Shown here piece after piece: positions 10,977 through 55,352 of a stretch of 64,000 nucleotides of DNA. The DNA comes from Perkinsus olseni (Eukaryota): contig JABANN010000045.1 in the NCBI GenBank assembly GCA_013115125.1, forward strand, positions 1-64,000, given 5' to 3'. A model generated the notes under the pieces. The model worked only from the letters and a program-made list of their open reading frames with translations. It was not told the origin of the DNA and made no database searches. Position numbers and translations under genes: made by a program. The first letter of the stretch is position 1. Every line of letters starts with the position of its first letter.

Positions 10977-11255
10977 TACCGTATCGTTCGTATCTTTGGG
11001 GACAAGGATTCCGTATGCTTAAGAAGATATCTCCAACGCTTGGCATAGCTTGTGTTCTCTGTCTCTCTAGCAATGTCTGGAGGGATTCTATCATTGAGCA
11101 ATCATTGTTTATGTGTGAGAAGGGATCATGTGATAGAATAAATCATGTTGTTGGTGTGAGGTTTTGAGGGGCCTGATCGGCGGACTGGGGCACGAGAAGG
11201 ACGAAGACGATGAATCATGTTTGACTGTGTTAGTTACTTTGTATTTATTTCACGA

Positions 11256-12824: not shown

Positions 12825-13971
12825 TTAAGCTGATAGATGACATCGAGGCGTCTACTATGATCTCTGGATCGCCAAGTGATGACGTTTCAACCTATCGGCG
12901 TAATTCTAATCGCACGTTCAGTGGTTTTTGATAAGCTCGTCGGGAGACGATGTCTTATCGCTTGTTTGTCGTCGCTTCATTATGAAGGGTAGAGCAAACG
13001 TGTTGTGGCTGTATGTATGATGGCAGAATGTTCCATTCTCGGCATAGCCGTTATTTCGAACTGTAACTCCTGCCGTTATCCGATTAGGCTGTATTCTTTC
13101 GTTACTCCTCTGCTATTTTATATGATTTGAAGATATCGTCGCAACTGTTGTGGCTAACGCCTGGCTGCGTATAATTCACTTGGTGATTCCTCGTGAAGTA
13201 GTAGCACGGTCCACTTGGATCCGACAGTAGCCATTCTCGATACTACACGTCGGGAGGATATCACGTTATACAATTTATCGTTCTTCTTGGTGATGTTATT
13301 TCCCTTTAGTATTGTATTAACACCATTTAGTGTGCCTTTACCTGTGGGATTCGTCATCTGTGCTCAAGATAACTAAAATTGTCCTTACTATCTGTAGTTT
13401 CTATAATTTGCTGGATCGGTTCAGCTATACCGAGGTCGAAATCTCTTCAAGATTGACGCCTCGCGATCCCGAAAGCCGAGATGTCTCGGCCGCGCTTCAG
13501 TTGGGTCTGTTCGGCCATATACCGCTTCCTTATATTCCGCTTGGCGCGTGGAACACGTCGCTTACGCCGGAGATTAAGGGCGATGGTGAAAGGCTTTTGC
13601 GTCCTCTGTGAAGGTGACGGTGAAATCGTCGCCAGCAGACCCGTGGTTTCCATTCATCGGAGACCACCACTGCGCCCTGTCCACTGGACCCCAAGTTTCT
13701 AATTTTCGGTGTGTATATCGTCGTGTGTTGGGTTGACTTATTCTGCTAGCCGTGTTTTCCACAGACTAGAAGACGGGGGATGATTAACAGGTCTTTGTTT
13801 CACGTAGATCTTTCAATTCATAGATATCTATTGCCGTCATATCACGACTTGGTGAAACATGAGCGATGTTAGCGTCAGTGCCATAGCTGTGGAGTCTCGT
13901 TGGAGGAATTGGGTCTGTGTGGTTGACGTGGTTCCTGCTTCAGTTCCTGTTCACTTGTATTTCTGTTACTT

Positions 13972-15525
13972 ATGAAGTACGTCTGTGCTATACTTTCTGT
14001 TGGTGCGGTTCTTCTCGGGCCACTGATGTTCGGTCTCACATCTGGTTTCACTGGTCAGACTATTGATACCATGGGGAACAGCGTTACCACTGCTGATGGT
14101 ACCCCTATTCAGATCGGTGACTATGACCACTTGTGGGTCTTTCACAGCTCGAGCGAGTCTTCTTTGTTCGGATCTCTTGTGAACATCGGTGCCATGTTCG
14201 GTGCTTTCATCGGCGGTCCTCTCATCGACAGGTTCGGAAGGAAGTGGTGCCTTGTTGGCATCTCTCCCTGCTTCGTTCTCTGCTACCTCTGGCAGGCTTT
14301 GGCCCACACCTCGTGGCAGTTGCTGTTCGAGCGTGTTCTTGTTGGTATCGTTGTTGGTGTCGAGTCCGTGGCTGCCCCCACCTACATTGGTGAGGCTTCC
14401 CCCACCAAGATCCGTGGTATGCTCGGTGCTGCCAACCAGTTGGCTGTTACCATCGGTATCCTCGTCGCCTACGCTTTGGGTATGGCTTTCAGGACTCAGG
14501 CCAACTCTGTGGATCCCAACGCCGACAGTCAGACTTTCTGCAACTGGCGTGATGTTAGTTGGATCTACCTCATCCCTTCCGGCCTCCTCGGCGTCCTCGT
14601 GTTCTTTGTTCCCGAGTCGCCTCGTTGGCTCGCTGAGCATCGGGGATTGGACGCGGCCAAGAAGGTGTTGTTGAGACTCCACGGTACTGATGAGAACGAT
14701 GCGGATGTTGCTGTTGAGCTGAAGGCTTATGAGGTCACCGTTGAGGCTCAGAAGGCCAAATCGGGTATGACTCAGAAGCAGCGACTCAACGATGCGGTGT
14801 CCGGCCTCCGTAAGTACTGGATCCAGGTGGTCATCGGTGTGGTGCTGCAGATCTGCCAGCAGTTGTCTGGTATCAACGCAGTCATTTTCTATCAGACCAC
14901 TATCTTCCAGGCGGCTGGTATCAGCAACAAAGAAACCATGGCTCTCATTACCATGGTTGTCCAGGTCGTTGTTACTTTCATCGCTTGCTGCATCATGGAC
15001 CTTGCCGGCAGGAGAGTATTGCTGGTTGTTGGTGCTAGCGGCATGTGCATTTCTGCATGGATGTTGGGTCTCTTCTTCTACCTCCAGGATGTCAGTGGCG
15101 TGACCAACGTTGGCTGGTTGGCTCTGGCTTCAGCCTACTGCTACATTGCTTTCTTCTCTATCGGCGTCGGCGCGATCCCGTGGCTCATTATGTCCGAGAT
15201 TTTCCCCAACGAAGTTAGAGGCAACGCTGCTGCCATCGCTACTGCTGTCAACTGGCTCTTCTCCTTCATTGTCACCATGTGCTTGGATGCTTACAGACAG
15301 GCCATCACTTACCAGGGTGTCTTCTGGAGCTTCGGTTTCATCTGCTTGGTGATGATCTTCTTCGTCGTACTCTTCATCCCTGAGACTAAGGGTAAGTCAT
15401 TCGAGGAGATTGAGGCCGAGTTCGACAAGAAGTATCACAGAAAGCATGCTGCTAATGCCAAGGAGACCTCGCCGGCTTCCGTGGAAGAGGGTCCCCACAG
15501 CCCCACCACTACTGTGGAGGTCTAA
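13972..15525 (+). CDS. MFS sugar porter (hexose transporter), copy 2, intronless
   Basis: 517-aa ORF with the same sugar-porter motifs (DRFGRK, PESPRWL, QQLSGINA, PETKG). Confidence 0.97.
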   Translation: MKYVCAILSVGAVLLGPLMFGLTSGFTGQTIDTMGNSVTTADGTPIQIGDYDHLWVFHSSSESSLFGSLVNIGAMFGAFIGGPLIDRFGRKWCLVGISPCFVLCYLWQALAHTSWQLLFERVLVGIVVGVESVAAPTYIGEASPTKIRGMLGAANQLAVTIGILVAYALGMAFRTQANSVDPNADSQTFCNWRDVSWIYLIPSGLLGVLVFFVPESPRWLAEHRGLDAAKKVLLRLHGTDENDADVAVELKAYEVTVEAQKAKSGMTQKQRLNDAVSGLRKYWIQVVIGVVLQICQQLSGINAVIFYQTTIFQAAGISNKETMALITMVVQVVVTFIACCIMDLAGRRVLLVVGASGMCISAWMLGLFFYLQDVSGVTNVGWLALASAYCYIAFFSIGVGAIPWLIMSEIFPNEVRGNAAAIATAVNWLFSFIVTMCLDAYRQAITYQGVFWSFGFICLVMIFFVVLFIPETKGKSFEEIEAEFDKKYHRKHAANAKETSPASVEEGPHSPTTTVEV

Positions 15526-15967
15526 GTCGAGTGATAGATGACAGCTAAGCGTCTGTACTGCTCGGTACACAATCGGGCGATGGCGCTTGGGGCTGTCGTA
15601 GTGGCTCGGATCTTACGCTCCCTAGTAGTTTTATGAATAGCTCGTCCTGGATTGGCATCGATCGTTAAGTGGTGTTCTGTTGGTCTTGTGGACTTGAAGA
15701 CTCTATTGTAACTATATGTGGCAACAGACTGCTGCGCTTTAGGCGTAGCTGTTGTTCTCTATTACATCATTCTTATTACTTACTTTATACTCTCAGTAGC
15801 ACGGCCTTCCGTTGCTACCTCATTCATAACCCGCCAGTACTGTTACAACTTATGTAACTGATGCGCGGCCTGATCGAGAACTCGTCGTATCATCGTCATT
15901 CTGGCAGAAGCTGGTATTGCTGGTGTGTACTACGAGATCGTCGCTTTTACCAGCATACCTAGTAGGT

Positions 15968-16016
15968 ATCGAGTAACTGCTGCTGTAGGTATTACCTACA
16001 GCAGCAGTTACTCGAT
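15968..16016. repeat. 49-bp palindrome (24-bp perfect arms, 1-nt centre)
   Basis: atcgagtaactgctgctgtaggta-t-tacctacagcagcagttactcgat. Confidence 0.95.
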
Positions 16017-17221
16017 TCGAATCGCGTGCGATCTCATATCCACAATTGGCATTCTGGTCAGCGAGATGTAGGTCTGGTTACAAGCGTCGTTCGTCCCCTG
16101 ACGTATTGTATTTTATGATTATTCCATTCGGTTACTCAGTGTTCGGCGGATCACCTCAGAAGTCGAGGTCCCGCTAGTATCGCACATCAAAAGCTGTTCT
16201 TCCCTTCATGAGAATCGTCTTTCTATGCCAAGTACCGCTTCCTTGTCTTCCGTTCAACGCGTGGAACCAGCGTTACATAACTACGAAGATTAGGGTTGAT
16301 GGTAGAGGGTCACCTCAGTATTCCGTTGGTGATGAAGTCATTCTCTGCGAGGCGATCGACAGTGAACAGTAGAGACTGCGTCTCACCTTACTATGTTAAG
16401 TTTCTAGTACTGGATCTATACTAGGGCAAGTGTTGAGTTGAAAGTTGGTCACAAAGTACGGTGCACCGTAGTCTAATGTACGGTGTACATTACATTCCTG
16501 GTTAAATCCCGGAGACTAACTCTTCGGTACGGACTCCATCGTACAACATGCTCATATTTTATAATGGACAAGTAACCTTAGCACTTGTATCAGATAGCAG
16601 ATTCACTCAATATATCCTTCTCGGCACAGAGAAGGATTTCTCCGCCTGATAACGCTGAACGCGCCAAATTTCCTTCAACATATAGTCTGTCTAGGGTTCG
16701 GCCACGTCCGTTAGTGGTCCGACACGAACTTCGTCTGCCAAGTAGAAGCGTCAGGTTGCGTGACAAACTGTGATGTGCTTCCCACCTCGAGCTATGTATT
16801 GTGTCGAAGCTGTCTCTTTCGTCGCAGCCCGGGGCCGCGAAGACCCCTCTTTTGCGATCACAGAGGCCTGACTGTTCGGTGGTGGGGAGCTTAATCCGGT
16901 CTCGAATCTCTGCAACCTGTAGACAGGCTACAGTATCAGCTCGAGGAAGTGGTTGTCAGTGAGCTGAGCGTGAGCTCAGACGGACTGGGTAGAATTGGGC
17001 TCTAGCCTTCGCGTAGTAGCGTGAACGACGTCCACCCAAGGCCCAGAGCCCATCGCACTCGGTGATGGATAGAAAACCGTAGCGAATCTTCGCTAGGTGC
17101 CTAGGCTCTTATACATAAGAGTTTTTCGAGTTCGCGGTCTAACGTTAGGCTTTGAGCGAAGGACTTCTTAAGCAGGAATGGATTCAGTTCAGTTTCTTGT
17201 TATTAGTCTTTTCCTTGACTA

Positions 17222-18790
17222 ATGAAGTATATCTGTGCTGTGCTGTCTGTTGGCGCAGTGCTGTTGGGACCACTGATGTTCGGTCTCACAACTGGTTTCA
17301 CCGGTCAAACTATCGATACTATGGCCAACACGGTTACAACCGCTGATGGTACTCCTATTGAGATCGGGGATTATGACCACCTATGGGTGTTGCATGGTTC
17401 CAGCGAGTCCTCCTTGTTCGGATCTCTTGTGAACATCGGTGCCATGTTCGGTGCTTTCATCGGCGGTCCTCTCATTGACCAATTCGGAAGGAAGTGGTGC
17501 CTCGTTGGGTGTTCCCCTTGCTTCGTTCTCCTTTATCTGTGGCAGGCTTTGGCCCACACCTCGTGGCAGCTGCTGTTGGAGCGTATTATTGTTGGTATCG
17601 TTGTTGGTATCGAGTCCGTGGCCGCCCCCACCTACATCGGTGAGGCTTCCCCCACTAAGATCCGTGGTATGCTCGGTGCTGCTAACCAGTTGGCTTCTAC
17701 GATTGGCAATCTCATCGCCTACGCTTTGGGTATGGCTTTCAGGACTCAGGCCAACTCTGTGGATCCCAACGCTACTAGTCAGACTTTCTGCAACTGGCGT
17801 GATGTGAGTTGGATCTATCTTATCCCGTCGGGCCTATTGGGAATTCTCGTTTTCCTCGTTCCCGAGTCGCCTCGTTGGCTCGCTGAGCATCGTGGGTTGG
17901 ATGCGGCCAAGAAGGTGTTGTTGAGACTTCACGGTACTGATGAGAATGACCCGGATATCGTTGAGGAGCTGAGGGCTTATGAAGCCACGGTTGAGGCTCA
18001 GAAGGAGAAGGCTGGTTCGACGAGGAAGGAACGTTTCGACGATGCGATGGCCGGTCTCCGTAAGTACTGGATCCAGGTGGTCATCGGTGTGGTGCTGCAG
18101 ATCTGTCAGCAGCTGTCTGGTATTAACGCAGTCGTTTTCTACCAGACTACTATCTTCCAGGCGGCTGGTATTAGCAACAAGCAGATGATGGCCCTTGTTA
18201 CTATGATTATTCAAGTTGTCGTCACCTTCATCTCCTGCTGTATTATGGATCTCGCTGGTAGGAGATTCTTGCTGGTCTTTGCCGCCTCGGGTATGTGCAT
18301 TTCTGCATGGATGTTGGGTCTCTTCTTCTACCTGCAGGATGTCACCGGATTGACCAACGTTGGCTGGTTGGCCCTGGCTTCAGCCTACTGCTACATTGCG
18401 TTCTTCTCTATTGGTGTCGGTCCGATTCCGTGGCTTATTATGTCCGAGATTTTCCCCAACGATGTCAGAGGCAACGCTGCTGCTATCGCTACTGCTGTCA
18501 ACTGGCTGTTCGCATTCATTGTTACCATGTGCTTGGATGCTTACAGGCAGGCCATTACCTACCAGGGCGTCTTCTGGAGTTTCGGTTTCATCTGCTTGGT
18601 GATGATCTTCTTCGTTCTCTTCTTCATCCCTGAGACCAAGGGTAAATCCTTTGAGGAGATTGAGAATGAATTCGATAGCAAGTATCACAGGAAGCATGCC
18701 AAGAATAAGGAGCCCGCTGCCCCGAGAAGTGAGATATCCTCGACTCTCGAGGAGTCCTCTACTCCTGTGACCACAACCGCTGAGCCGTAG
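17222..18790 (+). CDS. MFS sugar porter (hexose transporter), copy 3, intronless
   Basis: 522-aa ORF with sugar-porter motifs. Confidence 0.97.
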   Translation: MKYICAVLSVGAVLLGPLMFGLTTGFTGQTIDTMANTVTTADGTPIEIGDYDHLWVLHGSSESSLFGSLVNIGAMFGAFIGGPLIDQFGRKWCLVGCSPCFVLLYLWQALAHTSWQLLLERIIVGIVVGIESVAAPTYIGEASPTKIRGMLGAANQLASTIGNLIAYALGMAFRTQANSVDPNATSQTFCNWRDVSWIYLIPSGLLGILVFLVPESPRWLAEHRGLDAAKKVLLRLHGTDENDPDIVEELRAYEATVEAQKEKAGSTRKERFDDAMAGLRKYWIQVVIGVVLQICQQLSGINAVVFYQTTIFQAAGISNKQMMALVTMIIQVVVTFISCCIMDLAGRRFLLVFAASGMCISAWMLGLFFYLQDVTGLTNVGWLALASAYCYIAFFSIGVGPIPWLIMSEIFPNDVRGNAAAIATAVNWLFAFIVTMCLDAYRQAITYQGVFWSFGFICLVMIFFVLFFIPETKGKSFEEIENEFDSKYHRKHAKNKEPAAPRSEISSTLEESSTPVTTTAEP

Positions 18791-20328
18791 TTCTCCCTTA
18801 TGCAAGAGAGGTGCTGCCCCTGTACGTGCTAAAGACCCTCAGTAGTAGATTACACTGCAGGTGTCAGCGAGACAAGTTTCTAATCTTATGCCCACACTAC
18901 GGTCGTTAAACTGCTGCACATTCTGATGCTCTTGATGCTGAAATGCAAATTCCTATCGTGATGGGTGAGTTGAAGACTCCATGCCCATCGTCTTCTGGGA
19001 GCTAGTAAAATTGTTTATGTTGGCCCGATTACCGATAAGCCCAAGATTACAGTGGCTATGCGCTAGGAAGTTCAAGTTGTATAAGACTCCTATCACCACT
19101 CATGCGGTGGTTCATGGTGTAGCTATAGCATGTTATTATGGATGAGTTCCTTTTGCTGCTTAATGCCCGAAGTGGCTGGCTGCGCCCTCTCTCCAGTGGC
19201 TAGTAATAGCAGCTGCGTTCTACTCGGATCTGATTAACCTTACTCAGTGTCGCAGTTCCTGCTTTGCGATGCTCGTTGTCACTTCACTGTATTGACGACG
19301 GATCAAGCATATTGAGTGATTTTGTCACCATGACTAGCCATTGTAGAATAATCCTATTCACATACTACTGCTGTACAAAATTTATAGCTGTTTCTCATAT
19401 CTGATCCGTTTATCCGGTCTGAGATCGCCCAGCAACTTCTTCCGTCTTTCTCTGCTCACGTCGCGTGTGCTCGCGGGCCTCGAGTTGTTAATCTGGATCG
19501 AGCCTCAGCCAATCTTTTTTTGTTCCAGCTTGTCGACACGGGGAGTAATTATCGCTGCTATCCGAGTCTTGTAGTTTTCTCGCGACACTTCTACTCGTTG
19601 CACCCACCGAACAGATCCGAGACCGATGCGGGTGATGAACGTCAATCAGTCCCTCCTGATTCCATTCGGAGGCATCGGGGAAGTGGAACGTCTCGATTCG
19701 ATGTGCTCTAGTTCATAGTCGGAGGTCGTTTCGAACCTAAGCTCCACTTTTACCCACCAGCTCAACTCGGAGATTCTTGGAGCGATTGTTGCGCGGATTC
19801 GTACAATTCAATCATCATCTGCCCTCATCTTGAGTGCTTTAGGAGCTTCTTGAGTTAGTGGTATGTTAAGCGATTGGTTCGACGTGGCAGTGAAGTCCTA
19901 GTTGCGCAAGGTGTATGCAAGTTACTAATCTGATAGCACCGTGGACAGCGAGCATGCTCACTAAATTCTTTCATTCTATGCGCCGATTGCCTGTTCACGT
20001 TCTCTTCCTGTACGTCACCTTTTCCTAAGGTGAGAGGAGACAGAGCGAACACAAGCTTAGCGATATTCCACGGGATGCGCACCCTTGTGTACATGTCTAG
20101 TCACGCTAAGAAGCGCGACTGCTAGCGTGCACACCTGAGGTTCATCCGAAGTGGCTTGTTTAGCGGAGGATGGACCAACGGGTGCTCTCTCGCGCAATAT
20201 CCGTTGAATTGCTCGGCGGCTTCGAAGTCGTGTGTCTCGTCGGCGGGTGGGCTTTGGAGGTGGTGTTCACCTCACGTACGAGTGTTTTTCAGTTTTTTTT
20301 ATAAAGTTACTTTAATACCCAAAGCCCT

Positions 20329-21966
20329 ATGAAGTATCTTTGTGCTATTATTTCCGTCGGAGCGTCCCTTTTTGGACCGTTGATGTTCGGTTTGACATCT
20401 GGTTTCACCGGTCAAACAATTGATACGATGCAGAATGGCGTCACGACTGGTGATGGTACACCAGTGGCAATTGGGCCTGATGACCATCTCTGGGTATTCA
20501 CCAATACTACTCAAGGTTCTCTGTTCGGTTCGTTGGTCAACCTTGGTGCTATGGGCGGTGCTATCCTGTTGGGTGGTCCTCTAATCGAGAGGTTCGGTAG
20601 GAAGTGGGTCTTGCTGGGATGCTCTCCTTGCTTCCTGCTCTGCTACGTATGGCAAGCTTTGGCTCATACCGCCTGGCAGCTCTTGTTCGAGCGTGTCCTC
20701 GTCGGTTTCGTCGTCGGTGTCGAGTCTGTCGTGACTCCGACGTATATTGGTGAGGTTTCTCCTACCAAGATTCGTGGTGCATTGGGTGCCTGTAACCAGC
20801 TGTCTATCACCATCGGTATTCTCATCGCCTACGCACTTGGTTTGGGATTCCGAACAGATTCCGGTTCAACTGATCCTAACGCTAACAGCCAGACTTTCTG
20901 CCAGTGGCGTGATGTGAGTTGGATCTATCTGATTCCGAGTGCCCTGCTGGGTATCTGCATGTTTTTCGTGCCCGAGTCCCCACGTTGGTTGGCCGAGCAT
21001 AATCGTGCTGATGCCGCTAGGAGGGTTTTGCTGAGACTTCGTGGCTCTAAGACAGTGGAGGAGGATCCAGAGATTATGGCAGAGGTCAAGGCTTACGAGT
21101 CCGAGGCAGAGGAGAATGCCAAGAACGCGAAGGACAACTGGAAAGAGACAGTCGTTTGGTCGTGGCATGCTCTGGGACGCGCCAAGACGCAGCTGTTTAT
21201 CGGTGTCATTCTGCAAGTTTTGCAGCAGTTATCTGGTATTAACGCTGTTATCTTCTATCAGACTACTATCTTCCAAGCTGCTGGCTTGAATAACAAAGAG
21301 ACCATGGCCCTTGCTGTTATGGCGGTGCAAGTCATTGTTACATTCATCGCTTGTTGTATTATGGATATGGCGGGAAGAAGATTCCTGCTCGTCTTGGGCG
21401 CAGTTGGTATGTGTATAGCCGCTATTCTTTTGGGTGTCTTCTTCTTTGAGCAAGGCATTGATGATAACAACATCCCTGCGTTGGCTCTTTTCGCTGCCTT
21501 CTTGTATATTGCCTCCTTCTCCATTGGTGTTGGTGCCATTCCGTGGCTGATCATGTCCGAAATCTTCCCCAATGATGTCAGAGGTCTCGCTAGCTCTATC
21601 GCTACTGCCGTCAACTGGTTCTTCTCCTGGATTGTCACCATGTTCTTGGATGATTACAGAAGGGCGATCACTTACCAGGGTGTCTTCTGGAGTTTCGCCT
21701 TCATGTGTTTCGTGTTGGCCGTCTTCGTCTTGGTATTTGTACCAGAGACCAAGGGCAGGTCATTCGAGACGATCCAGGCCTACTTCGATTCTGGTCGTAT
21801 CGTCAATTGCGAGTGTTGGGATAACTACAAGAGGAAGCACCAGAAGCCAGTGGATCATAGCGAGGACAAGCAGGTTCCTGAATCTTCAGTTGACCAGACG
21901 GAAGTGCAAGTATCTGTTAAGGGCTCACCCTCAGCCGATCAGAAAAAGTTGGATCAGGCTATATGA
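20329..21966 (+). CDS. MFS sugar porter (hexose transporter), copy 4, intronless
   Basis: 545-aa ORF; ERFGRK, PESPRWL, QQLSGINAVIFY, PETKG. Confidence 0.97.
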   Translation: MKYLCAIISVGASLFGPLMFGLTSGFTGQTIDTMQNGVTTGDGTPVAIGPDDHLWVFTNTTQGSLFGSLVNLGAMGGAILLGGPLIERFGRKWVLLGCSPCFLLCYVWQALAHTAWQLLFERVLVGFVVGVESVVTPTYIGEVSPTKIRGALGACNQLSITIGILIAYALGLGFRTDSGSTDPNANSQTFCQWRDVSWIYLIPSALLGICMFFVPESPRWLAEHNRADAARRVLLRLRGSKTVEEDPEIMAEVKAYESEAEENAKNAKDNWKETVVWSWHALGRAKTQLFIGVILQVLQQLSGINAVIFYQTTIFQAAGLNNKETMALAVMAVQVIVTFIACCIMDMAGRRFLLVLGAVGMCIAAILLGVFFFEQGIDDNNIPALALFAAFLYIASFSIGVGAIPWLIMSEIFPNDVRGLASSIATAVNWFFSWIVTMFLDDYRRAITYQGVFWSFAFMCFVLAVFVLVFVPETKGRSFETIQAYFDSGRIVNCECWDNYKRKHQKPVDHSEDKQVPESSVDQTEVQVSVKGSPSADQKKLDQAI

Positions 21967-23067
21967 GTTATTGCTGAATAACATTTGATGGTGCTTGGGT
22001 GATATAACCAAGTACCCATCTCTGTATGGTAGAATGCCCGGGTGGCAAATTATGCTCTACTTGGATTTCTCTTAATTTCTTTCGGTAGGTCGCACGTGCT
22101 GTGATGTACTTGTTGTTGTTGGTTTACGTCCTTGAAGCAACTCCTACCTTTGGGTTACCTAAGTTTATCTAAGTTTACTACATCTATAGCTCTTTTTCTT
22201 CGTTATTGCGGCGATCGAAACTTTATCGGTGCCAGCAACTGTTGTAGTTTTTGGTGCCTACTTTATACTGATTATATACTGGGACAATCTTTGTTTACTT
22301 CCCTCTCTTGTGGTTAGGCTGAATATTTCAAAAGTATATGGAGCATCGCTCGAGTCTAGAATTCACACTGAAAATGGTTGTCTTTGAGTTGTAAGGTGTC
22401 TTGGGTAAGGAGTGGTTATACTCGCCGCCACGGAAGTGAGATTAAAGAGAGGGGAGGGGTGCCCATGCGTGAACTCCGTGTCCTGTTCGAGGCTAGTTAG
22501 TCTCAAACTCGGGTATTGGACGTGGAGCGCTTTAGAGGGCTCTGGTTTGCTGGGGAGTCGCGGGAATTCCAATGCTATGGCTCTGCTTTCAAGCTTCTTG
22601 CGAATTCCTGGGGATCGAGAGATGAGATTGCTGTATTGTCCCGAATGCATTCGGGAGACCGGGAACAAGGGGCTCGAGTTTACTGAACTCAACACGTAGT
22701 GTTAACGGCCATCTCCGTTGAGGATAGCCACCAGGTATTATTGTAGTGTGTCTACGTCACGTAAATCACGTGTCTCAAAAGGCAGACTGAAAAGACCTCG
22801 GTGTTGAATCCTCTGTGCTTGGAGTCTCCTTGGCATCTGTCTATAACACAAAGAGAACACAATCCATCAGCCTTCCGCTGAGGCTAGCGCTAGTACACTC
22901 TTCTTTCTTGGCTTTAGTTTTGCTCGATATCGTTCGGGGACAGATGAGCGGAAGCGTTGGCGAATAGAGTAGCGACTGCTTTGTGCGATGCGGGGAATGA
23001 GTTGGGTACATTCCTCATACTATTTAATACTCTCAGTTTTTATCCACTAGTTTCATCGCTAAGGTTC

Positions 23068-24606
23068 ATGAGGTACCTCTGTGCAATACTCTCTGTTTCG
23101 GCTTCCCTATTGGGACCACTCATGTTCGGTCTGACTCTGGGTTTCACTGGCCAGACTATTGATACCATGCAGAATAACGTTACTACTTCTGATGGTACAC
23201 CTATTGAGATCGGTCCCGATGATAACTTGTACGTATTTGATACTTCAACCGAAGGCTCCTTGTTCGGTTCCCTGGTCAACCTGGGCGCCATGGGCGGTGC
23301 TATCCTGTTGGGTGGTCCTCTTATTGAGAAGTTCGGCAGGAAGTGGGTTCTTCTTGCTTGCTCACCTTGTTTCCTCCTGATCTACGTGTGGCAGGCTTTG
23401 GCTCACACCTCGTGGCAGTTGTTGTTTGCCCGTGTCCTAGTCGGCTTCGTCGTCGGCGTCGAGTCCGTCGTCGTTCCCACCTACATCGGTGAGGTTTCCC
23501 CCACGGCTATTCGTGGCGCTTTGGGAGCCTGCAATCAGCTCTCCATCACCATCGGTATCCTCCTTGCCTATGCCCTCGGACTGGCTTTCAGGACTGACGC
23601 CGGTTCTACCGATCCCAACGCTACTGACAGCACCTTCTGCCAGTGGCGTACGGTGAGTTGGATCTATCTGATTCCCAGTGCTCTGCTGGGTATCTGCATG
23701 TTCTTTGTGCCCGAGTCTCCTCGTTGGTTAGCTGAGCATAATCGTGCGGAGGCTGCCAAGAAAGTTTTGTTAAGACTTCGAGGTTCGAAGTCAGTTGAGG
23801 ACGATCCCGAGATCATGGAAGAGGTGAAGGCTTATGAAGTGTCAGCTGCTAACAACGAGAAGAATGCGAAGGATACTTGGAAGGAGAGTGCATCCTGGGC
23901 CGTCCACGCCCTTGGGCAATGCAAAATGCAGTTGTTCATTGGTATCGCACTGCAAGTCCTACAGCAGTTCTCTGGTATCAATGCTGTTATATTCTATCAG
24001 ACAACTATCTTCCAAGCTGCCGGTCTAGATAACAAGGAGGGTATGGCTCTTGCTGTCATGGCCGCTCAAGTGGTTGTAACTCTGATTGCCTGCATAATCA
24101 TGGATATGGCGGGAAGGAGGGTCCTACTGGTAGCTGGCGCTGCGGGTATGTGCATCGCGGCTATTCTGTTGGGCGTCTTCTTCTTTCTGGACGATGTCAA
24201 TGATAACAACGTCAGCTGGTTGGCTATTTTCTCCGCCTTCTTGTATATTGCTTCCTTCTCCATCGGTGTCGGTGCCATTCCATGGTTGATTATGGCTGAG
24301 ATCTTCCCCAACGAAGTGAGGGGTCTATCTGCGTCTATCGCCACTGCCGTCAACTGGTTCTGTTCCTGGATTGTCACCATGTTCTTGGATGACTACAGAG
24401 AGGCTATCACCTACCAGGGTGTCTTCTGGAGCTTCGCCGTCGTCTGTTTGGTTATGGTTGCCTTTGTTCTGGTCATTGTTCCAGAGACAAAGGGTAAGAC
24501 CTTCGAAGAGATTCAGGCCTACTTCAGTAGAAGGTATGGTGACAAGACCAGGACTGTGGACGCTGCCGTTAAGGTGGACGTTGAGAATGCTGCGGGTTTG
24601 CAGTGA
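23068..24606 (+). CDS. MFS sugar porter (hexose transporter), copy 5, intronless
   Basis: ORF from MRYLCA (paralog-aligned start); EKFGRK, QQFSGINAVIFY, PETKG. Confidence 0.97.
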   Translation: MRYLCAILSVSASLLGPLMFGLTLGFTGQTIDTMQNNVTTSDGTPIEIGPDDNLYVFDTSTEGSLFGSLVNLGAMGGAILLGGPLIEKFGRKWVLLACSPCFLLIYVWQALAHTSWQLLFARVLVGFVVGVESVVVPTYIGEVSPTAIRGALGACNQLSITIGILLAYALGLAFRTDAGSTDPNATDSTFCQWRTVSWIYLIPSALLGICMFFVPESPRWLAEHNRAEAAKKVLLRLRGSKSVEDDPEIMEEVKAYEVSAANNEKNAKDTWKESASWAVHALGQCKMQLFIGIALQVLQQFSGINAVIFYQTTIFQAAGLDNKEGMALAVMAAQVVVTLIACIIMDMAGRRVLLVAGAAGMCIAAILLGVFFFLDDVNDNNVSWLAIFSAFLYIASFSIGVGAIPWLIMAEIFPNEVRGLSASIATAVNWFCSWIVTMFLDDYREAITYQGVFWSFAVVCLVMVAFVLVIVPETKGKTFEEIQAYFSRRYGDKTRTVDAAVKVDVENAAGLQ

Positions 24607-24674
24607 GTCTAATGGACAGAGATCCTGTCGCTATAACATGAATCTACAATTTTTATTGAATGAGGGCCATCCTC

Positions 24675-24745
24675 TCTTCAATGTTTAATGACTGATCGTT
24701 CAGACAGTTCTTCAATGTTTAATAATAACTGATCGTTTAGACAGT
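24675..24745. repeat. Imperfect ~35-bp tandem duplication in the 3' flank of transporter copy 5
   Basis: tcttcaatgtttaatgactgatcgttcagacagt followed by tcttcaatgtttaataataactgatcgtttagacagt. Confidence 0.85.
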
Positions 24746-25484
24746 ATACGTGGAAGAATCATTCTACGAACCCGTTCACGGGCGACAAAGTTATCGCACT
24801 GTTCTACGGGGTTGTTTAAGTGGCTCCTTGTGATCTACTTGCAAGTTTATGTCGTTGGATAAGCTACTCTTGAAGGATTGGTCGTTGCTGTGTTAGTTAA
24901 TTAAGCCTGTCAATAGTATAGACGTTCGTCCCTGCGGTACCACCGGAGTGGTAGGCTTTCTGTTTGATGAAGATGATGGAATTGTGCAGGGTGAATTAAC
25001 TGACGTTGAAGCCAGGTTAGAAATAGTTGAAAATTTAGGCTCAGATTGGGTAAGTCGACGACCTCAAACTTGAGGCGATAGCGAGTCGCTGTCAGCGACG
25101 GTTGTTGGCCCATCGCTGCTGGGCTCATTACTACAGAGTTAATGAGTCATTAGCTATCAATGCCCGCACAAAATACATGCGCGTGTTTGCCAGGGATTAT
25201 TTCATTCATTCTTCGAGCTCATAGACGTGATCGGGCCCTCTCAAAAAAGTTGAACCCATTGCAATAGACGACAGGGCATCGATGGTCCTATGGACTCACA
25301 CCAACTCGAATTCCTTGCGTGGCGGGTCTTCGGAGCGGAAATAGCGACTGTGCGCGTCAATGGGACAGGACTGTGCGGGCAATGAGAACAGCCGGTGCGA
25401 AGGCTCATGCTCAAGAACCGCCGAGTGGTAGTCGTTTGATGCAAGATACTTCACCAAGCGGTGCGTAGGTCTTTTTTCTTCTCA

Positions 25485-26951
25485 ATGAAGTGCATGTGTG
25501 CGCTTCTATCTGTTGCGGCTTCTCTGTTGGGGCCACTCATGTTCGGTCTCACTATGGGTTTCACCGGTCAGACTATCGACACCATGCAGAATAACGTAAC
25601 TACTCTCGATGGTACACCTATTGAAATTGGTCCCGATGATAACTTGTACGTATTTGTTACTCCAACGGAAGCCTCTTTGTATGGTTCCCTGGTCAACCTC
25701 GGCGCCATGGGTGGTGCTATCCTGTTAGGTGGTCCTCTTATTGAGAAGTTCGGCAGGAAGTGGGTTCTTCTTGCATGCTCACCTTGTTTCCTCCTGATCT
25801 ACGTGTGGCAGGCTTTGGCTCACACCTCGTGGCAGTTGTTGTTTGCCCGTGTCCTAGTTGGGTTCGTCGTCGGCGTTGAATCCGTCGTCGTTCCCACCTA
25901 CATCGGTGAGGTTTCCCCTACGGCTATTCGTGGAGCCCTGGGAGCCTGCAATCAGCTTTCCATCACCATTGGTATCCTCCTTGCCTACGCACTTGGACTA
26001 GCATTCAGAACGGATGCCGGTTCTACCGATCCCAGCGTTACTGAGAGCACCTTTTGCAACTGGAGAAGCGTCAGCTGGACCTACTTGATCCCTTCCACTT
26101 TGTTGGGTATCTGCGTTCTCTTTGTCCCCGAGTCCCCCAGGTGGCTTGCCCAGCATAGCAAGGTTGAGCATGCTACACGGGTTTTGCTGAGGCTTCATGG
26201 CTCAAAGTCTGCGGCCCAAGACCCTGAAATCATGGAAGAGATGAAGGCTTATAAGGAAACGGCAGAACGTGGCTCAGAGGTGACCTGTCGCAGTTGGCAG
26301 GGTCGTGTTAGTCGGGCTTTACACGCTCTTGGCGAGTGCAAGACGCAGTTGGCAATCGTTATCATGGTGCAAGTTCTGCAGCAGCTCTCCGGCAACAACG
26401 CCTTCATCTTCTACCAGACGACTATCTTCCAGGCGGCTGACATCGACAGCAAGGATGCGATGGCCCTAGCGGTTATGGCTGTTATGGTTGGTGTGACTCT
26501 AATCGGCTGTGTGGTTATAGACAGGCTTGGTAGGAGAGTGCTCCTTGTAACTAGTGCTGGAGGTATGTGCATAGCAGCTGTTCTCCTCGGTACATTCTTT
26601 TTCCTGGACGATGTCGACCATAACAACGTCAGCTGGTTGGCCATCTTCTCCGCCTTCTTGTACATTGGATCCTTCTCTATCGGTGTTGGTGCCATTCCAT
26701 GGCTGATTATAGCAGAGATTGCCCCCAACGAAGTGAGGGGACTGTGCGCGTCCATTGCAATAGCCGTCAACTGGTTCTGTTCTTGGATTGTCACAATGTT
26801 CTTAGATGACTACAGAGCGGCGATGACGTACCAGGGAGTCTTCTGGAGTTTCGCTGTTGTCTCCTTAATGACCATCATCTTCGTGTTGCTCTTCATACCC
26901 GAGACCAAGAATAAATCTTTTGAAGAGATTCAATCACACTTCCACTCATGA
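25485..26951 (+). CDS. MFS sugar porter (hexose transporter), copy 6, intronless, divergent C-terminal half
   Basis: ORF from MKCMCA; QQLSGNNAFIFY, DRLGRR, PETKN; short C-terminal tail. Confidence 0.95.
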   Translation: MKCMCALLSVAASLLGPLMFGLTMGFTGQTIDTMQNNVTTLDGTPIEIGPDDNLYVFVTPTEASLYGSLVNLGAMGGAILLGGPLIEKFGRKWVLLACSPCFLLIYVWQALAHTSWQLLFARVLVGFVVGVESVVVPTYIGEVSPTAIRGALGACNQLSITIGILLAYALGLAFRTDAGSTDPSVTESTFCNWRSVSWTYLIPSTLLGICVLFVPESPRWLAQHSKVEHATRVLLRLHGSKSAAQDPEIMEEMKAYKETAERGSEVTCRSWQGRVSRALHALGECKTQLAIVIMVQVLQQLSGNNAFIFYQTTIFQAADIDSKDAMALAVMAVMVGVTLIGCVVIDRLGRRVLLVTSAGGMCIAAVLLGTFFFLDDVDHNNVSWLAIFSAFLYIGSFSIGVGAIPWLIIAEIAPNEVRGLCASIAIAVNWFCSWIVTMFLDDYRAAMTYQGVFWSFAVVSLMTIIFVLLFIPETKNKSFEEIQSHFHS

Positions 26952-36072: not shown

Positions 36073-36850
36073 TAATACATGACTCATGACGGCGGTGTGT
36101 ATGGATGTGCAATCAGTCTCCATATCCACTTGACCACCTGTTGAGCTCCTGTGTTGGTTGGGGTCCGTACGTACTGCCGCTGCATCCAAGATCTGCAACG
36201 TTATCGCAAGATAGTCACCTCATGCCCAACTCCGCTCCACAGCTCTTCCGGAATCGGACTTGCGGAGGCATGGGTGCATCGGGCTCCGACATTTTTGATC
36301 ATCGATACTGCATGATGTACCGTATGGCCGAGTGGATGGGGTTGGTCGAGAGGGGCCCGTGTCCTCGAGCTAACAGGAGGAACAGTCGAACGCCTATGAG
36401 CTCTGAAGAAGCCTACGCGTTCCTTGGGAAAGTGGGAGCATCTGAGGAATCCTCAGCTGCGATGAGGGCCGCCGAGCAGCATGGATCTTACGAAGGCAGC
36501 GCCGAGGCGCCATTGGATACTTGTTCAAAGAACGTTCCCGAGGTCGCGGAAAGTCGAGACCAACCTGATCCTGGCGACGGGGACATGCCCAACAGTTCGA
36601 GTTGATAGGTGAGCAATAGGGACTTGCCGTGTCGTAGAGTTTCTAAGCACTTTCAGGGCAACGACACATAGTGCTCACTGCAACGTTCATAACGCCGAAG
36701 GTCATGTCATTTCATGCGGAAAAGTTACCTCCTAGAGGTTAGATGAACTCTGTTGTGCGGACTTGGTGACCAACAATCATTGCGACTGTGTTTATGCTCT
36801 GTACCAGGAACGAGAGTTGTTGCGTCAGTGACAAGTGCATGGTACAGAGA

Positions 36851-36923
36851 TGGAGAACCCGGGCATCGATCCCGGTGCCTCTCGCTTGCTAAGCGAGCGC
36901 TCTACCATTTGAGCTAGTCCCCC
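36851..36923 (-). tRNA. trnA-AGC: tRNA-Ala (AGC)
   Basis: Reverse complement GGGGGACTAGCTCAAATGGTAGAGCGCTCGCTTAGCAAGCGAGAGGCACCGGGATCGATGCCCGGGTTCTCCA folds as a cloverleaf; anticodon arm CTCGC-TTAGCAA-GCGAG. Confidence 0.96.
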
Positions 36924-37082
36924 ATGGTTTTGGACTCTTTGAGCGAGGCTTAACCGCTCCGTTTCTTCAAAAGCGTGGAAGCCTCACAACTTGCCAATCG
37001 CAAGTGCGTGACGTTAACATCTCGACGCTAACAAATCGTCATCGTATCTCGTAATGGCGACTCTTTGGTTGGATAGAATCCC

Positions 37083-40595: not shown

Positions 40596-42956
40596 CTAAT
40601 CAGAGTCGGAGTCGGAGTCAGGGAAGGGGATCGAGTTGATGCCTGTCTCGAGAGCTCCACCGCCACGCCACGAGGCTCGCTTCTTCTTAGCCATCTCCTT
40701 GCGGAAGTCTGGCAATACCACAACATCTTCGACTCGCGCTAGGGTACTACACTACTACCTTTACCACGAACCTTGATCAGGTCCGAAGCTGCCTTGTCAC
40801 CCCAGGTGTCACCAGCACCATGGCCGAACCTACACAGAGTAGTTCCAGGAAAGCTCCACCAAGGCAGCTTAGCAATTCTACCTCTTCTTTGCTTCATGAG
40901 TATTGTCCTTTCTCGAGGTCGTAAGATGGGAGATGTACCTGTCATTGGTCCCCTACCACCTGCACACTTGAAAGAGATACCTACTTGGACTCATCTATCC
41001 GCCTCCAGTGGTCTCCATGCTTCTTGCCAGAGGTAGCAGCAGACTCTCCTGTGCTGTCCTGCCACCATTCAGAAGAAGGCGCCTCGCTCCATTCCCATTC
41101 TTCGGAACTTTCGGGCGTCGTGGGAGCCTGCTCCTCGCTTTCTTCCGCGGGTTGCTCTGATAGGACACCCGCTACATCAATGACCCCCGACCCGTCGGTA
41201 ATACCAACAGAAGCCTTCTCCTCCTGCTCGTTCTCAACCTCTGCACTCTCTTCCTCGGCCTTCTTTGCTTCTGAGAGGCAACCTTGCACAAGCCAAGCGA
41301 ACTCAAATCCCGATCTTGAGCCGACGCCCAGAAGAGTATCACTAAACTCAGCCCGAACGACATTACTCTCGGACTGCTTCTTCTTGGTCACCACAGCTCC
41401 CCCTTCAGAAGCAATCTCCTCCTCCTCAATGGCCTCGTGCTTCCCTAAAGACGAAGGATCCGCGATCAATACCCAACCTCGCTCGGATAATCCCCGCGTT
41501 CTGCACTACTCTTCGAATGCTTCTTTTTCTTCTTGGGGGCCTCCTCTTCCTCCACTACTGCCTCGGGTTCCTCGACCTCCTCTACACTCTTGCGATGCTC
41601 TGAATGAAGCTTTGGTAATGCAACAAATCGCCCGTTCGTGATCGATGGTACTACTCTTCGAGTGCTTCTTCTTCTTGGGGGCCTCTTCCTCCTCTTCTTC
41701 TTCCACTACCTCCTCAGGTTCCTCGACCTCTTCTGCACTCTTGCGATGCTCTAAGTGAGGCCCGGATGGTAGAGCAAATCGCCAGACGTTTTCAACGGTA
41801 CTACTTTTCGAATGCTTCTTCTTCTTGGGAGCCTCCTCTTCCTCCACTACCTCCTCGGGCTCCTCGACCTCCTCTACACTCTTGCGATGCTCTAAGCCAG
41901 GTAAGAACAGAGATACCCAAGTTTCTCGGCAGTGATCAGCAACGATACTACTTTTCGAGTGCTTCTTCTTTTTCTTTGGAACCTCCTCCTCATCCTCGGA
42001 CTCCGCAGCGACCTCCTCTACCTCAGCTATCTTATGCTCTGAAAAAGATTCTCGAAATTGAATCGATCTTGGTTCGCCTCCACCCACAATACTTTTAGAG
42101 TGCTTCTTCTTTCTCTTCTTCTCGGGTTCGGCCGGCTCCTCAGCAGCGACTAAGAGGAGATCCCGATTACTCGACCGCAGTGCCGACACGCTCGGGAATA
42201 TAAAAGTTTACTACCCTCGGCCTCCTCCTCCTCCTGAGCGACCTCCTCCAGCTGACCATTCTCTGAAAAGAATATGTGAGAAGCTCTTCTACGACTCGGA
42301 GCTAGTCACAGCTCTAAGTTGTATAGGACAGCAAACACTGGGATCGAACACCTCAGGTGGTCGATGCTCACTCTTAGAATGCTTCTTTTTCTTTTTCTTC
42401 TCGACAATCTTAGTGGATTCGGGCTCTGAAGGGGAATCATCGTTGTCTTGATAACGCTCTGTCTCAATTCAAAAGACTCCCTATTTTACCTTCAGTGACT
42501 TCCTCCACCTCTGCCTCTTCTGCTGCTGCTAGCGCCTTCTCTAAGAAAAAACCACGGCCGTCGTAGCGCAAGTCACGAAGAGGCACTTTTCAACAATAAG
42601 TACTACTTTTCGAGTGCTTCTTTTTCTTCTTCTTTGCAGGCTCCTCGGCGTTGACCTCTACAAGCTCTTTCTCATCTGAGACGCCACCCATACTACGCTT
42701 AGTTCCAGCCAAGGAAAGAACGATGTAGACGAGATGCACATGCCTTGAAAATCAACCCAGCTAGACAGACGAGATCACCTTCGGCGGGTGCTGCTTGGAG
42801 CTCTTCACTGATCTCCTCCGCCTTGCGCTCTGAGAGAAGTCACGCTACGAAAGAGGGAGTTCAGCTTCAGCTCACTCTTGGAGTGTTTCTTCTTCCTCTT
42901 CTTCAACTCGACATCACCCTCGACATCAACTGCAGGACACGGAAGGCGAGCCATTG
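40596..42956 (-). CDS. SRP40/Nopp140-like nucleolar protein with repeated acidic/basic exons
   Basis: C-terminus TWGDKAASDLIKVRGK..FRKEMAKKKRASWRGGG..INSIPFPDSDSDSD* matches the SRP40_C pattern. Many EEVEEPEE..PKKKKHSKS repeats. 5' end uncertain. Confidence 0.8.
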
Positions 42957-51477: not shown

Positions 51478-53494
51478 GGCCAAAAACAACTGCTACCAGC
51501 ACACAATCCGCAGGGCTCCGGCTAACTCCGACAGCCTCGTCCCACTTGCTCAACTCGAGAAATCTCCTTTCACTTCGAAACAGTCGATTTATCATGCTCA
51601 GAAACTGCGCCACTCCGCGCTTTCTCCATTATTGATTTGCGGAACATATGGGTACTATAGCCACTCACAGGCTGCTGCATTCGCTCCCACCACCACTGGT
51701 CACCGTAACTCACACAGAGCTCCGAACCTGGCAGAATGGACGCGACTTTTACTCAGAAGAAAATTGCCGACTCGCACGGTACGCCAGAAGACATTCGGTA
51801 TCAGGCTCGCTGCAACCTAAGATACTCCGACCCCCCGATTCTCACCAGCCGGAATGTCTTCTGTGGCCTTCATGACCATCACCACATGCCTGCCATCTAT
51901 CGTTCGCTCAATGTTATACCTCAAGTTGGGCTTATCCGAGTGATTATACAACGACCCAAACCCCAAAGGGAGATACAAACTGTCAAGAAAGGTCGACTCA
52001 GTTCATATCTTAAGTCCACCCATGCTCATCACGAATAACGGGCGATTCTTATTACATTCGGTCATCATTCAAATGGGAGCATTCCCCTGGGAACTCGTAC
52101 ACATAATCCTCGAGCCGCGTACCCTCCACGGCCGAACTCGTCGAGTCCGCAGCACTTATCTGAGAAACACATAGTCAAAGAGTCCCCGAACGGTCCTGCG
52201 TGTCTACACTCTTCCTCGTGAAGCCCAAGGTGGGGCAGACTTCCACCACGGTTCCCTTGGTGACGTCAGCATTCGCGAAGACGCCAAGGCCTAAGAGATG
52301 GTCCGCATGTCTCACACCAGCCGAGATTACGCTGTCCTCCAGGGTTTATCGGGCATCTACATGATGGGGCAGACGTGCAGAAAATAACGCCCGTCCGAAT
52401 GGGAAGCGTGCGTAGATGCGTTTTCAGCTATCACCTTGAATTGGGGATTTTCGAACTTCCACCGGCCCATTAGACCATATCGCTTCGGTGTGGGGCATCT
52501 TAGATTTGACCCGGATACGCGAGGAGGTCGACACCCGATTTTGGAGGGTACCGGATAGCCTGCTCAGCATAGGGAAAACTTAACTAATCATCAAGACACT
52601 GGCTATTCATCGACCACGTACCACCGGCGTCTCCAAGAGGCTCTCAACTTCTAACCCAGGGTGAAGGATTCCGCGCAGGTTCGATCCCCCCGTAGTCCGT
52701 TTCTTCAACCCCCTTACCGCACCCATCCAACATGTCCATGCCTTCTTCGTACAGCAGTCCTCAGACCCCACAGCTACGTACGAATGCTCATGTGCATCTG
52801 CTTGCTCATAGGAGGTGGAGCCCCGAAGTGGGTTGAAGCTGCTCAGCATGAAAGGTACACTGTTTTTCGGGGAGACTGCCGAACTCAAGGGTCAGGAAAT
52901 CGTTCCCCGCGTCGCTCTGCTTGGAAGCATCAGGCTTATCGAGAAGTCAGCAAGGTCTGCGTTGAAAACGTTCAAGACAGGAATCCTGTCTTAAATGATT
53001 CTGTCTTACATTCTAAGACTTTGCTCTCACTCGTCCCGGCCGTTCACCTCACTGGGTGGGCGCAATCAAGGAGGAGGCTGCTAAACCGCTTTAGTCCGAC
53101 CCCCTCGACGATTCGACTTCAGTCGCCCATACCCTAGTATGGGCAAGCTACACGGTGTAACGCCAGTTTCGTCGCCAAGGTGAACATCAACATCGGCGAG
53201 GATAAGCTCAAGGAGCGCCTTCCGGGGGCGTGTCGGTCAGGTCGCACTTCATACGTAGAGCTTTCAGTGCACTGGAAGGGTTGGCTAGTAGAGAGGTCGC
53301 TAAGGGGTGTCGCCAGGCGGGAGAGGAGGTGGCTGAGCCTAAGAGGCGGATAGTCAACGCTTACTCGGCAAGCGGGTAGACGAGAAGTTCCCCAAGATTC
53401 TTGGTTACGCGAAGTCAGATCGTTAGAGGGTGAAGGCAGAGATGCTGCGTCAATCGCGTATCAATGATGATGGTGAGAAGGATGGGTTGGAAAG

Positions 53495-53589
53495 TGTTGA
53501 GTATTTATATATTGATTGCAGAGGAATAGCAAGAGTGCAAGATAGTGAAGTCTTGCCGTCAGCTATTGTCATTAGAGGTTTACAGAGGC
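53495..53589 (+). repeat. Truncated 5' LTR
   Basis: Identical to 54343-54437; then jumps directly into pol-tail sequence. Confidence 0.92.
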
Positions 53590-54342
53590 CGCTTACCCAT
53601 GAGGATATTGTGTCATTTATCTCTTCAGCTGTACTCTCAGAGGTATCTCGATTAGATCGTCATCGTCGACAGCTGTTGAATGTTTGGTCTGACGCGTGGA
53701 CGAGATCGAGAGAGAGGAGTAAAGGCCCAGAGGCCCGAGAACATTATGTTCGAGGAGAATCAGTCTACATATATCGTAAGCCCCAACATAAATTAGATTC
53801 ACAATGGATAAGAGGTACCATTATGAATCCTATCGGCGGGCAGTGTTATGAGGTACAGCTTTCGGATGGTACACGACAAGTCTTTCATAAGGATCACATT
53901 AAGCCTTTTTATATATCAGAAGAAGAAGATCGTGTGCCGACACCCACTTCAAGAGGTCATAAGAGGAGAGATCTATCATCTCCACCTACCACTGAAGGCC
54001 TTCCACCAAAGAGGAGAGTGCGAATTGTGTCTTCTGGTCATCCTTTCTTAGCATGGAAAGATGAAGATGGTACGGTTAGGGTTGGTAGTAAGATATCATG
54101 GACCAATGATAATTTCTTTCTTGTCCATGAATATAAGCTGTTAGAGGACCATCGAACTGTCGCACCGATGTACTTCACTCCCGATGGTATATTAAGAGTT
54201 GGAGGTCCCCCAGAGAATCCCGCTACTGTTGCTGTCAACCCTAAGGGAGTCTCCGTTCTTAAACTGGAAAGCCCTACTCAGCTTTCTGTCGAATCTTCTA
54301 GGAAGGTGTCTGCTCTATAGCCGCCACCTTGGGGGGCCGAGA

Positions 54343-54525
54343 TGTTGAGTATTTATATATTGATTGCAGAGGAATAGCAAGAGTGCAAGATAGTGAAGTC
54401 TTGCCGTCAGCTATTGTCATTAGAGGTTTACAGAGGCACTCATTATCAGAGGTTCTAGAGGAGAGGTCGGTTACTAACGTAGCCATCTTGGCTCAAGTCA
54501 TGTTGCGTTATCTATAATCTCAACA
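54343..54525 (+). repeat. Complete 3' LTR (183 bp)
   Basis: TG..CA ends, preceded by a PPT-like tract, followed by the TSD. Confidence 0.92.
54477..54497 (+). other. Perkinsus-type spliced-leader sequence embedded in the LTR
   Basis: ACGTAGCCATCTTGGCTCAAG, matching the short (21-nt) Perkinsus SL as I recall it (long form ACCGTAGCCATCTTGGCTCAAG; cf. dinoSL DCCGTAGCCATTTTGGCTCAAG). Followed by TCATG, not a GT donor. Confidence 0.9.
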
Positions 54526-55352
54526 GAAAGTGATTCTCCTGCCATCCAAGAAGAGATGGATGGCATCTGATCTTGAACTTCTTCGTGATGATGGAGTTGA
54601 AAACGGAATTGGGGTTCGGCCTACCGCAAGTCGGGCATAGATTCCCCACAAGAGTATCTCGGACAGAGTACGAATGCGGACAGTCGTCACTTCGTCAGAC
54701 TTTCTCGAGAAGGCGTTCCTCTTTCTCGAGTACGAAGAGCGGATGTGGAGAGTGCTGAGTGGCTAACATGAATTTTGTGCAAGTCGGGAAGCGAGCCCAT
54801 TGTGTTGATGGTTGGCCGAGCGCTGGCTTTGGGATCGCTTGCCGATGGAGTAGCCCATCAACCATTGAGTACGGGCAGAGGTCTACACATGCCGAATGCA
54901 GCTGAGTCTAGAAAATTCAGAAGTAAGATAAGATATATTTTCTCGCCGAAGATCAGTGTGCGCACGCACTGATGCAAAGAGTCACGGTGGAGTGACTCGC
55001 GCAGTAAAAGCTCCCCAGTGGCTTTGCCTGAGAAACATGGGACGGGCGATGGATATGCCGGGCTCTTCGGACTCCTAAGTTTGGAGTATCGGCGATAACT
55101 GGTAACGCAACCACAATGTGCTGGATGGGAGCGAAAGGTTTCCTTGATATTGTTGAATATGATATGACACTGATCTGACGGAGACTCTTGCACGACTGGC
55201 CTGCGAGGATCGCGATCTGGAACGAGCCGAAAAGGGTGCATGCGCTCATGCAAGAGATCCCGAAATCTGATAGACCGACTAAAAAATAACAATCTCACCC
55301 AGCCTATCACCCAGATAGGTGAGCTGACTCTTCCTGATCTGTTGGCCCAACA

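Follow-up and report, generated by a model that had tools for sequence, protein, structure and literature searches.

A host spliced leader in spliced form within the long terminal repeat of a Perkinsus retrotransposon family

The 64,000 nucleotides (nt) of Perkinsus olseni DNA analysed here (assembly GCA_013115125.1, contig JABANN010000045.1, positions 1 to 64,000 of the forward strand; called the window in what follows) contain at 53495-54525 an internally deleted retrotransposon whose complete long terminal repeat (LTR), located at 54343-54525, carries at 54476-54497 the spliced leader (SL) of the trans-splicing host in its spliced form. The feature is real and replicated; relic spliced leaders as such are known, but the LTR of the retroelement is a new site for one, and a mechanistically telling one. 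The leader has probably, although by no means certainly, become fixed in the LTR via strong-stop DNA copied from a trans-spliced RNA of the element, and has been inherited since.

The 21-mer ACGTAGCCATCTTGGCTCAAG is found on the forward strand at 54477-54497 and is the sole match in the 64-kb window when up to three mismatches are allowed, while a shuffled control gave no match of any kind (0/100 shuffles) and shorter or short-type leader patterns produced no further match within the window. Among the leaders published for Perkinsus marinus, as far as the available passages of that literature show, are a 22-nt form, ACCGTAGCCATCTTGGCTCAAG, and a 21-nt form which lacks one T. Aligned with the 22-nt leader, 54476-54497 agrees in 21 of 22 positions, the one difference being A instead of C at position 2, and over the last 20 nt of the leader (54478-54497) there is no mismatch; the 21-mer itself is not among the published P. 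marinus variants. The borders of the match are, within 1-2 nt, exactly those of the exon, as splicing predicts: upstream the match stops within 1-2 nt of the first base of the leader and downstream it stops exactly at the last base of the exon. Directly 3' of the copy the sequence continues with TCATG, with no GT and no intron, the introns of P. marinus SL RNAs beginning with GTARATATCAG according to primers given in available passages of the literature. An Rfam scan returned no RNA family match on the leader copy, its one chance-level match falling outside the LTR. An SL RNA gene, the leader exon of which would be followed by a GT intron and a T-tract terminator, was therefore rejected as the identity of the copy.

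Within the 183-bp LTR the leader copy occupies positions 135-155, preceded by 134 nt and followed by a U5-like tail of 28 nt (54498-54525, on the forward strand and assigned from sequence), and from leader start to LTR end the distance amounts to 49 nt. A preliminary description of this DNA, made from the letters alone, had already given these distances correctly, had recognized the LTR as such and had stated that the copy is not an SL RNA gene, all of which agrees with the present analysis; of its further statement that the 21-mer is a perfect leader, the location holds, while the exactness to the published leader does not.

The element that surrounds the complete LTR measures 1,031 bp and, read on the forward strand, starts with a 5' LTR of which only the first 95 nt are left, continues with 753 bp of internal sequence and closes with the complete 3' LTR. 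The complete LTR begins with TGTTGAG and ends with CTCAACA, a terminal inverted repeat of 7/7 nt, and the element is flanked by a 5-bp target-site duplication, GAAAG, at 53490-53494 directly before the element and at 54526-54530 directly after the LTR end; the chance of a 5-nt flank match in the window is 0.0012 as estimated from 200,000 random pairs. The truncated 5' LTR (53495-53589), which does not include the leader copy, is 100% identical to 54343-54437 (95/95 nt), with the identity stopping exactly at both ends of the stretch and none to the left of it. At 53588-53589 a 2-nt overlap, GC, joins LTR positions 94-95 to the remnant of pol and marks the deletion junction, LTR identity extending to 53589 and a branch node being present at 53588 in both RNA and DNA contigs. 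The pol remnant (53590-54320, stop codon TAG at 54318-54320), which according to the open reading frame (ORF) and to HMMER comprises the C-terminal part of integrase, namely the SH3-like part and a Perkinsus-specific tail, is followed at 54331-54342 by the purine-rich tract GGGGGGCCGAGA (10/12 purines), a candidate polypurine tract by virtue of its position directly 5' of the 3' LTR.

Missing on the 5' side of the element are the leader, the LTR tail, the primer-binding site, gag and most of pol. No gag, protease or reverse transcriptase/RNase H was found in this 1,031-bp copy, as expected because it is a deletion derivative, and Pfam gave nothing significant in any of the six ORFs around the element (6/6). 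Inside the window the leader is thus present in only one LTR, since the 5' LTR copy stops before the leader position. The internal deletion may stem from a premature transfer of plus-strand strong-stop DNA before integration, with which the intact outer ends and the target duplication are compatible, but a later deletion is equally possible.

The ORF at 53427-54320, whose predicted product (P0001) comprises translated LTR sequence followed by the pol remnant and matches no Pfam family, retrieved 6 relatives by HMMER from 1.84 billion representatives, the best of which is P. chesapeaki KAF4654018.1 (58% identity, E 1.5e-73). All named relatives come from P. chesapeaki and P. marinus, the related integrase genes including also KAF4649450.1 of P. 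chesapeaki and EER18838.1 of P. marinus, and one is annotated as 'retrovirus polyprotein, putative'. P0001 aligns with the C-terminal parts of its relatives (P0006, P0008) from about residue 55, which is the deletion junction, while its first 54 residues, translated LTR included, are without alignment to the relatives. In the relative P0008, Integrase_H2C2 reaches 31 bits, above the cut-off, and rve 27.7 bits, below the cut-off of 32.6, and the family profile matches the foamy-virus integrase core with E 1e-6. A word-based search of the pol remnant against longer proteins yielded 2159 candidates, none of which scored, and the 71-amino-acid frame through the LTR, sought as other LTR copies annotated as proteins, gave no candidate. 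As judged from these sequence comparisons, the element is a retrovirus-like LTR retrotransposon with a predicted integrase as the last part of pol, and it represents a lineage so far seen only in Perkinsus.

That the leader-bearing LTR is not restricted to the window is evident from contigs of one DNA run, X1, in which depths are contig means and summed depths count overlaps twice. While the flanks of the window element have depths of 97 and 93.5 and the internal segment has 194, the contig 54397-54498, which contains the whole leader and differs from the window in 1 position, has a depth of 516, i.e. 5.4x the single-copy depth; summed depth is about 500-516 at 54392-54441 and 2318 at 54496. 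Among the contigs listed, three agree with the window as far as 54526, beyond which each continues differently, and two enter the LTR start from unlike sequence, diverging before 53493 and 53509. Equally among the contigs listed, no substitution of at least 10% occurs in 54442-54525, leader included, the variable sites 54392, 54393, 54396 and 54441 all being located upstream of the leader. One subfamily contig (depth 258 of 2318) has 3 extra nt, GTT behind 54496, at the junction of leader and tail. All X1 copies have A at leader position 2. Because of the multi-copy depth, the different flanks and the lack of a variant of at least 10% in the leader, the leader-bearing LTR is a trait of the family, present at several sites with the leader conserved, and not a one-off; the preliminary description had named the comparison with other copies of the LTR as the check on its reading, and the leader is indeed present in them. 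In one further X1 contig, which follows the LTR to position 61 (54403 in the window), a purine tract with a run of G and then TGTTG come next, resembling the beginning of a related LTR; this contig may represent another derivative of this type with a larger deletion.

These data also bear on the trivial explanation that the leader is a chance match or that the window contains a chimeric or mis-assembled junction. In its favour one could quote that only one leader-bearing LTR exists in the window, and that, relative to the window, X1 has in the interior of the element a 21-nt insertion behind 53624 and 6 substitutions in the pol remnant (53792-54260), the flanks being identical. Against it stand the shuffled control mentioned above, the independent DNA run, which has the same LTR and leader with 0-1 differences and at multi-copy depth, and the X1 contig of the window's own right flank, which begins inside the LTR end, so that we regard an artefact or coincidence as very improbable.

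How the leader may have entered the LTR is suggested by the position of the copy. By the established scheme of retroviral reverse transcription, the 49-nt span from leader start to LTR end is the content expected of strong-stop DNA made from a trans-spliced RNA. We infer that an ancestral element RNA would have received the leader by trans-splicing, with the acceptor located about 28 nt 5' of the primer-binding site, and that reverse transcription from the primer-binding site would have copied these 28 nt and the leader into minus-strand strong-stop DNA. The strong-stop DNA would next have been transferred, in the absence of a matching R, to the 3' end of the RNA, whereby U3 (with the old R), the leader and the 28 nt would have become the new LTR at both ends, to be passed on to all later copies. 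Today the leader copy would probably be part of the transcribed leader region, on the U5 side, as an inherited passenger; it may in addition act as a splice acceptor, by which mRNAs of the element would regain a capped leader with their sequence unchanged. An A at position 2 in all copies is expected if they descend from one event, and this common A-for-C difference suggests that the leader is inherited and not renewed from authentic leaders.

Several points weigh against such an origin from strong-stop DNA. The first jump without homology has to be assumed as a rare event, the A at position 2 could be the normal form of the leader in this Perkinsus species, and the role of a passenger is a default and not a demonstrated one. 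The 5' LTR of the window ends before the leader, and this deleted copy displays neither a leader in both LTRs of one element nor a primer-binding site. The evidence for copy number consists of contigs of a single DNA run, with overlaps counted twice and among the contigs listed. Finally, an X1 contig (mean depth 94.5) joins the left flank (53494) to the reverse complement of the 3' end of the internal segment (54342) with no letters between; this joint between opposite strands could reflect an inversion of 53495-54342 in the X1 strain or an artefact of the graph.

The same position in the LTR is compatible with a leader that is at work. The copy could be a functional R repeat or a cis-encoded mimic of the leader, with RNAs whose 5' ends arise by initiation at the leader copy or by trans-splicing at its AG, the sequence being the same in both cases, an alternative which the preliminary description had put forward and which we consider possible, if rather unlikely. 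Strong-stop DNA would then end in the complement of the leader and transfer to the leader copy in the 3' LTR, so that trans-spliced RNAs would still replicate. The location of the leader 28 nt from the LTR end fits an R/U5 arrangement, and among the X1 copies leader and tail are without substitutions while the part upstream is variable. The rise of the summed X1 depth towards the leader, given above, may mean that leader and tail are present in more subfamilies than U3. Moreover, the heptamer TACTAAC at 54472-54478, which overlaps the first 3 nt of the leader copy, has the terminal AG of the copy 20 nt further downstream; TACTAAC corresponds to a branch-site consensus and may in Perkinsus be a branch site for re-splicing, and on both strands of the window it occurs only 5 times. 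The deleted 5' LTR of the window provides nothing against a functional R.

A more specific version, which we judge unlikely, is that the host leader has been adopted as R in such a way that any transcript through the 5' LTR, host read-through included, is trans-spliced at the AG of the encoded leader with TACTAAC as branch site. If this were true, the sequence of the capped RNA would equal that of the DNA, and the element could do without its own promoter and would escape the loss of R that other LTR elements suffer through trans-splicing. The reverse transcriptase could furthermore switch between the RNA of the element and any host mRNA that bears the leader.

The constancy of position 2 argues against a leader in use as R, as the canonical base should return when authentic leaders are copied again and again, except if the reverse transcriptase stops before the cap or the leader of the species has A. 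Also, a TATA-like hexamer at LTR position 12 (54354-54359, forward strand, a motif match only) would, if used, place the start of transcription far upstream of the leader copy. A third argument comes from RNA, for which the evidence consists of contigs of one run, X8, and not of reads; contigs cannot show transcript ends. The X8 contigs span 52800-54372 with a depth of about 4-6 in the flank and 47 in the interior of the element, and what they contain is the upstream flank and the element as far as the beginning of the 3' LTR. There is no break in the contig 53495-53617, and the deletion junction has a depth of 23.9. In contrast to the interior, depth is 0 over 54398-54585 in these contigs; no RNA words cover LTR positions 96-183, none cross LTR position 95/96, and no 5' end of the form leader-tail-primer-binding site is present among the X8 contigs. 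As an R is expected at both ends of the RNA and at a depth equal to or above that of the interior, this pattern speaks against a functional R, though weakly, coming from contigs of a single run. The transcripts of the element apparently terminate within the 3' LTR, upstream of the leader copy or close to it. Short dead ends may, however, have been clipped by the contig builder.

The X8 contigs contain, upstream of 53588, an alternative context, TCAAGTTCTGCAGGA, with a depth of 6.5. Because this context reads on in the pol frame, a longer copy of the element is also transcribed. A TCAAG in the loose end before 53588 was considered as the end of a leader and was rejected, the 15 nt reading in frame as coding sequence of the longer copy. 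Both forms of the interior, with and without the 21-nt insertion behind 53624, are present in X8 RNA. X8 belongs to 13 runs with a second organism code (X8-X20), which contain 0.40-0.49 of the words sampled from 53300-55300 versus 0.77-0.82 in the runs of the first organism; among these 13 runs only X8 was examined in detail, and the others were not used as evidence.

The leader could alternatively have been captured at the level of DNA, with no trans-splicing of element RNA, the leader exon being acquired from an SL RNA gene or an intron-less SL-like array by adjacent insertion, recombination or packaging of read-through RNA. Elements that target SL genes reportedly exist in other phyla, which lends this route some plausibility. 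Possible donors are provided by P. marinus, for which more than 100 genomic loci with a recognizable leader, which have no intron, are not expressed as SL RNA and are left unexplained there, are described in the available passages of PMC3101222. The borders of the copy argue against such a capture: homology stops at the last base of the exon, with no intron-like bases thereafter, and the upstream edge is within 1-2 nt of the leader start. A relic leader as donor would only shift the step of reverse transcription one stage back. On balance, DNA-level capture appears improbable to us.

If the origin from strong-stop DNA holds, the consequences reach beyond this element. Relic leaders are an accepted mark of retroposition in dinoflagellates and perkinsids, and for the reverse transcriptase responsible reviews, in the passages available, only propose LTR elements as a source. 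A leader fixed in an LTR would directly show that LTR machinery copies and integrates leader-tagged RNA. Some of the more than 100 intron-less SL-like loci of P. marinus might be explained in this way as well. For every trans-splicing host the question arises how an LTR element keeps its R when the 5' end of its RNA is replaceable. On the practical side, the one-base difference from the canonical leader can separate encoded from trans-spliced copies in sequencing reads.

Elsewhere in the window, six uninterrupted ORFs of 503-553 amino acids, spaced by about 3 kb, are found on the forward strand at 11214-26951; three of the six were scanned, and all three belong to the sugar transporters (Sugar_tr, E 1e-103 to 2e-115). 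The region is a tandem array of intron-less transporter genes, upstream of which the leader search of the window found no leader copy. A repeat region at 41217-42903, with a period of about 141-150 nt and rich in CTT/CCT on the forward strand, overlaps an ORF of 233 amino acids on the reverse strand, which probably encodes a repetitive acidic or lysine-rich protein. The sole transfer RNA gene detected by a tRNA scan of the window, tRNA-Ala (AGC) at 36849-36924 on the reverse strand, is unrelated to the element.

Leaders of the Perkinsus type in spliced form also occur in environmental DNA, where 65 metagenome contigs (L001-L065) carry one, internally in 57/65 cases and with 51 distinct downstream contexts. 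The leader is preceded by TCC in 37/65 contigs, and in a few a second, decayed leader follows (2/65 at no more than 5/15 mismatches; by eye, for example, in L046 and L022); some of the contigs that begin with the leader may be transcripts. None of the 65 contigs continues with the LTR tail (0/65), and there were no tblastn matches for 9 family proteins and no LTR matches longer than 24 nt. Repeats in the flanks of L007, L016 and L030 were considered as LTR pairs and rejected, being simple or unrelated repeats. In viral contigs, the 19-nt core of the leader had 0 matches.

The preliminary description had stated that no LTR element with a built-in leader was known to it, and a search of the literature, conducted outside subscription journals and supplements, is in agreement, its available passages containing no report of a leader inside an LTR. 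Neither do the passages available from the literature draw a link between SL-like loci and LTRs.

Retroelements with ties to the spliced leader have been encountered in other hosts: SLACS, CZAR and CRE of trypanosomatids and NeSL of nematodes are said to be non-LTR elements that insert site-specifically into SL RNA genes. What they have in common with the element described here is the association of a retroelement with the spliced leaders of a host that trans-splices. The Perkinsus element, however, possesses LTRs and houses the leader within its LTR, and the site of its insertion is unrelated, with a GAAAG duplication that is not leader sequence. An assignment to this SL-gene-targeting non-LTR type was rejected on account of the LTRs and because neither the flanks nor the duplication are related to the leader.

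With LTR retrotransposons of the Ty3/gypsy-type order the element shares the TG..CA ends, the inverted repeat, the 5-bp duplication, the purine-rich tract (a candidate polypurine tract) and, in family members, the H2C2 and core domains of integrase, whereas the very short LTR of 183 bp, the Perkinsus-specific C-terminal tail of the integrase and the host leader in the LTR set it apart. Leader start to LTR end has the position and size of the retroviral R and U5 copied into strong-stop DNA. While the extent of a retroviral R is normally given by the start and poly(A) sites of the element, the candidate R in the Perkinsus LTR would, to judge from its sequence, be host-derived and originate from trans-splicing.

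The closest parallel are the relic leaders themselves. In dinoflagellates, relic DinoSL sequences are explained by leader-tagged transcripts that were reintegrated into the genome, according to passages of the literature on the work of Slamovits and Keeling (2008). As in these and in the intron-less P. marinus loci, the copy in the LTR is a DNA-encoded leader exon without intron which is inherited and can recur in many loci; 57 of the 65 environmental contigs display an internal copy of this type too. The known relics, however, are situated at the 5' end of retrocopied host genes, while the leader described here is located inside the terminal repeat of a retroelement, where its distance from the LTR end is constant, and it spreads with each new insertion.
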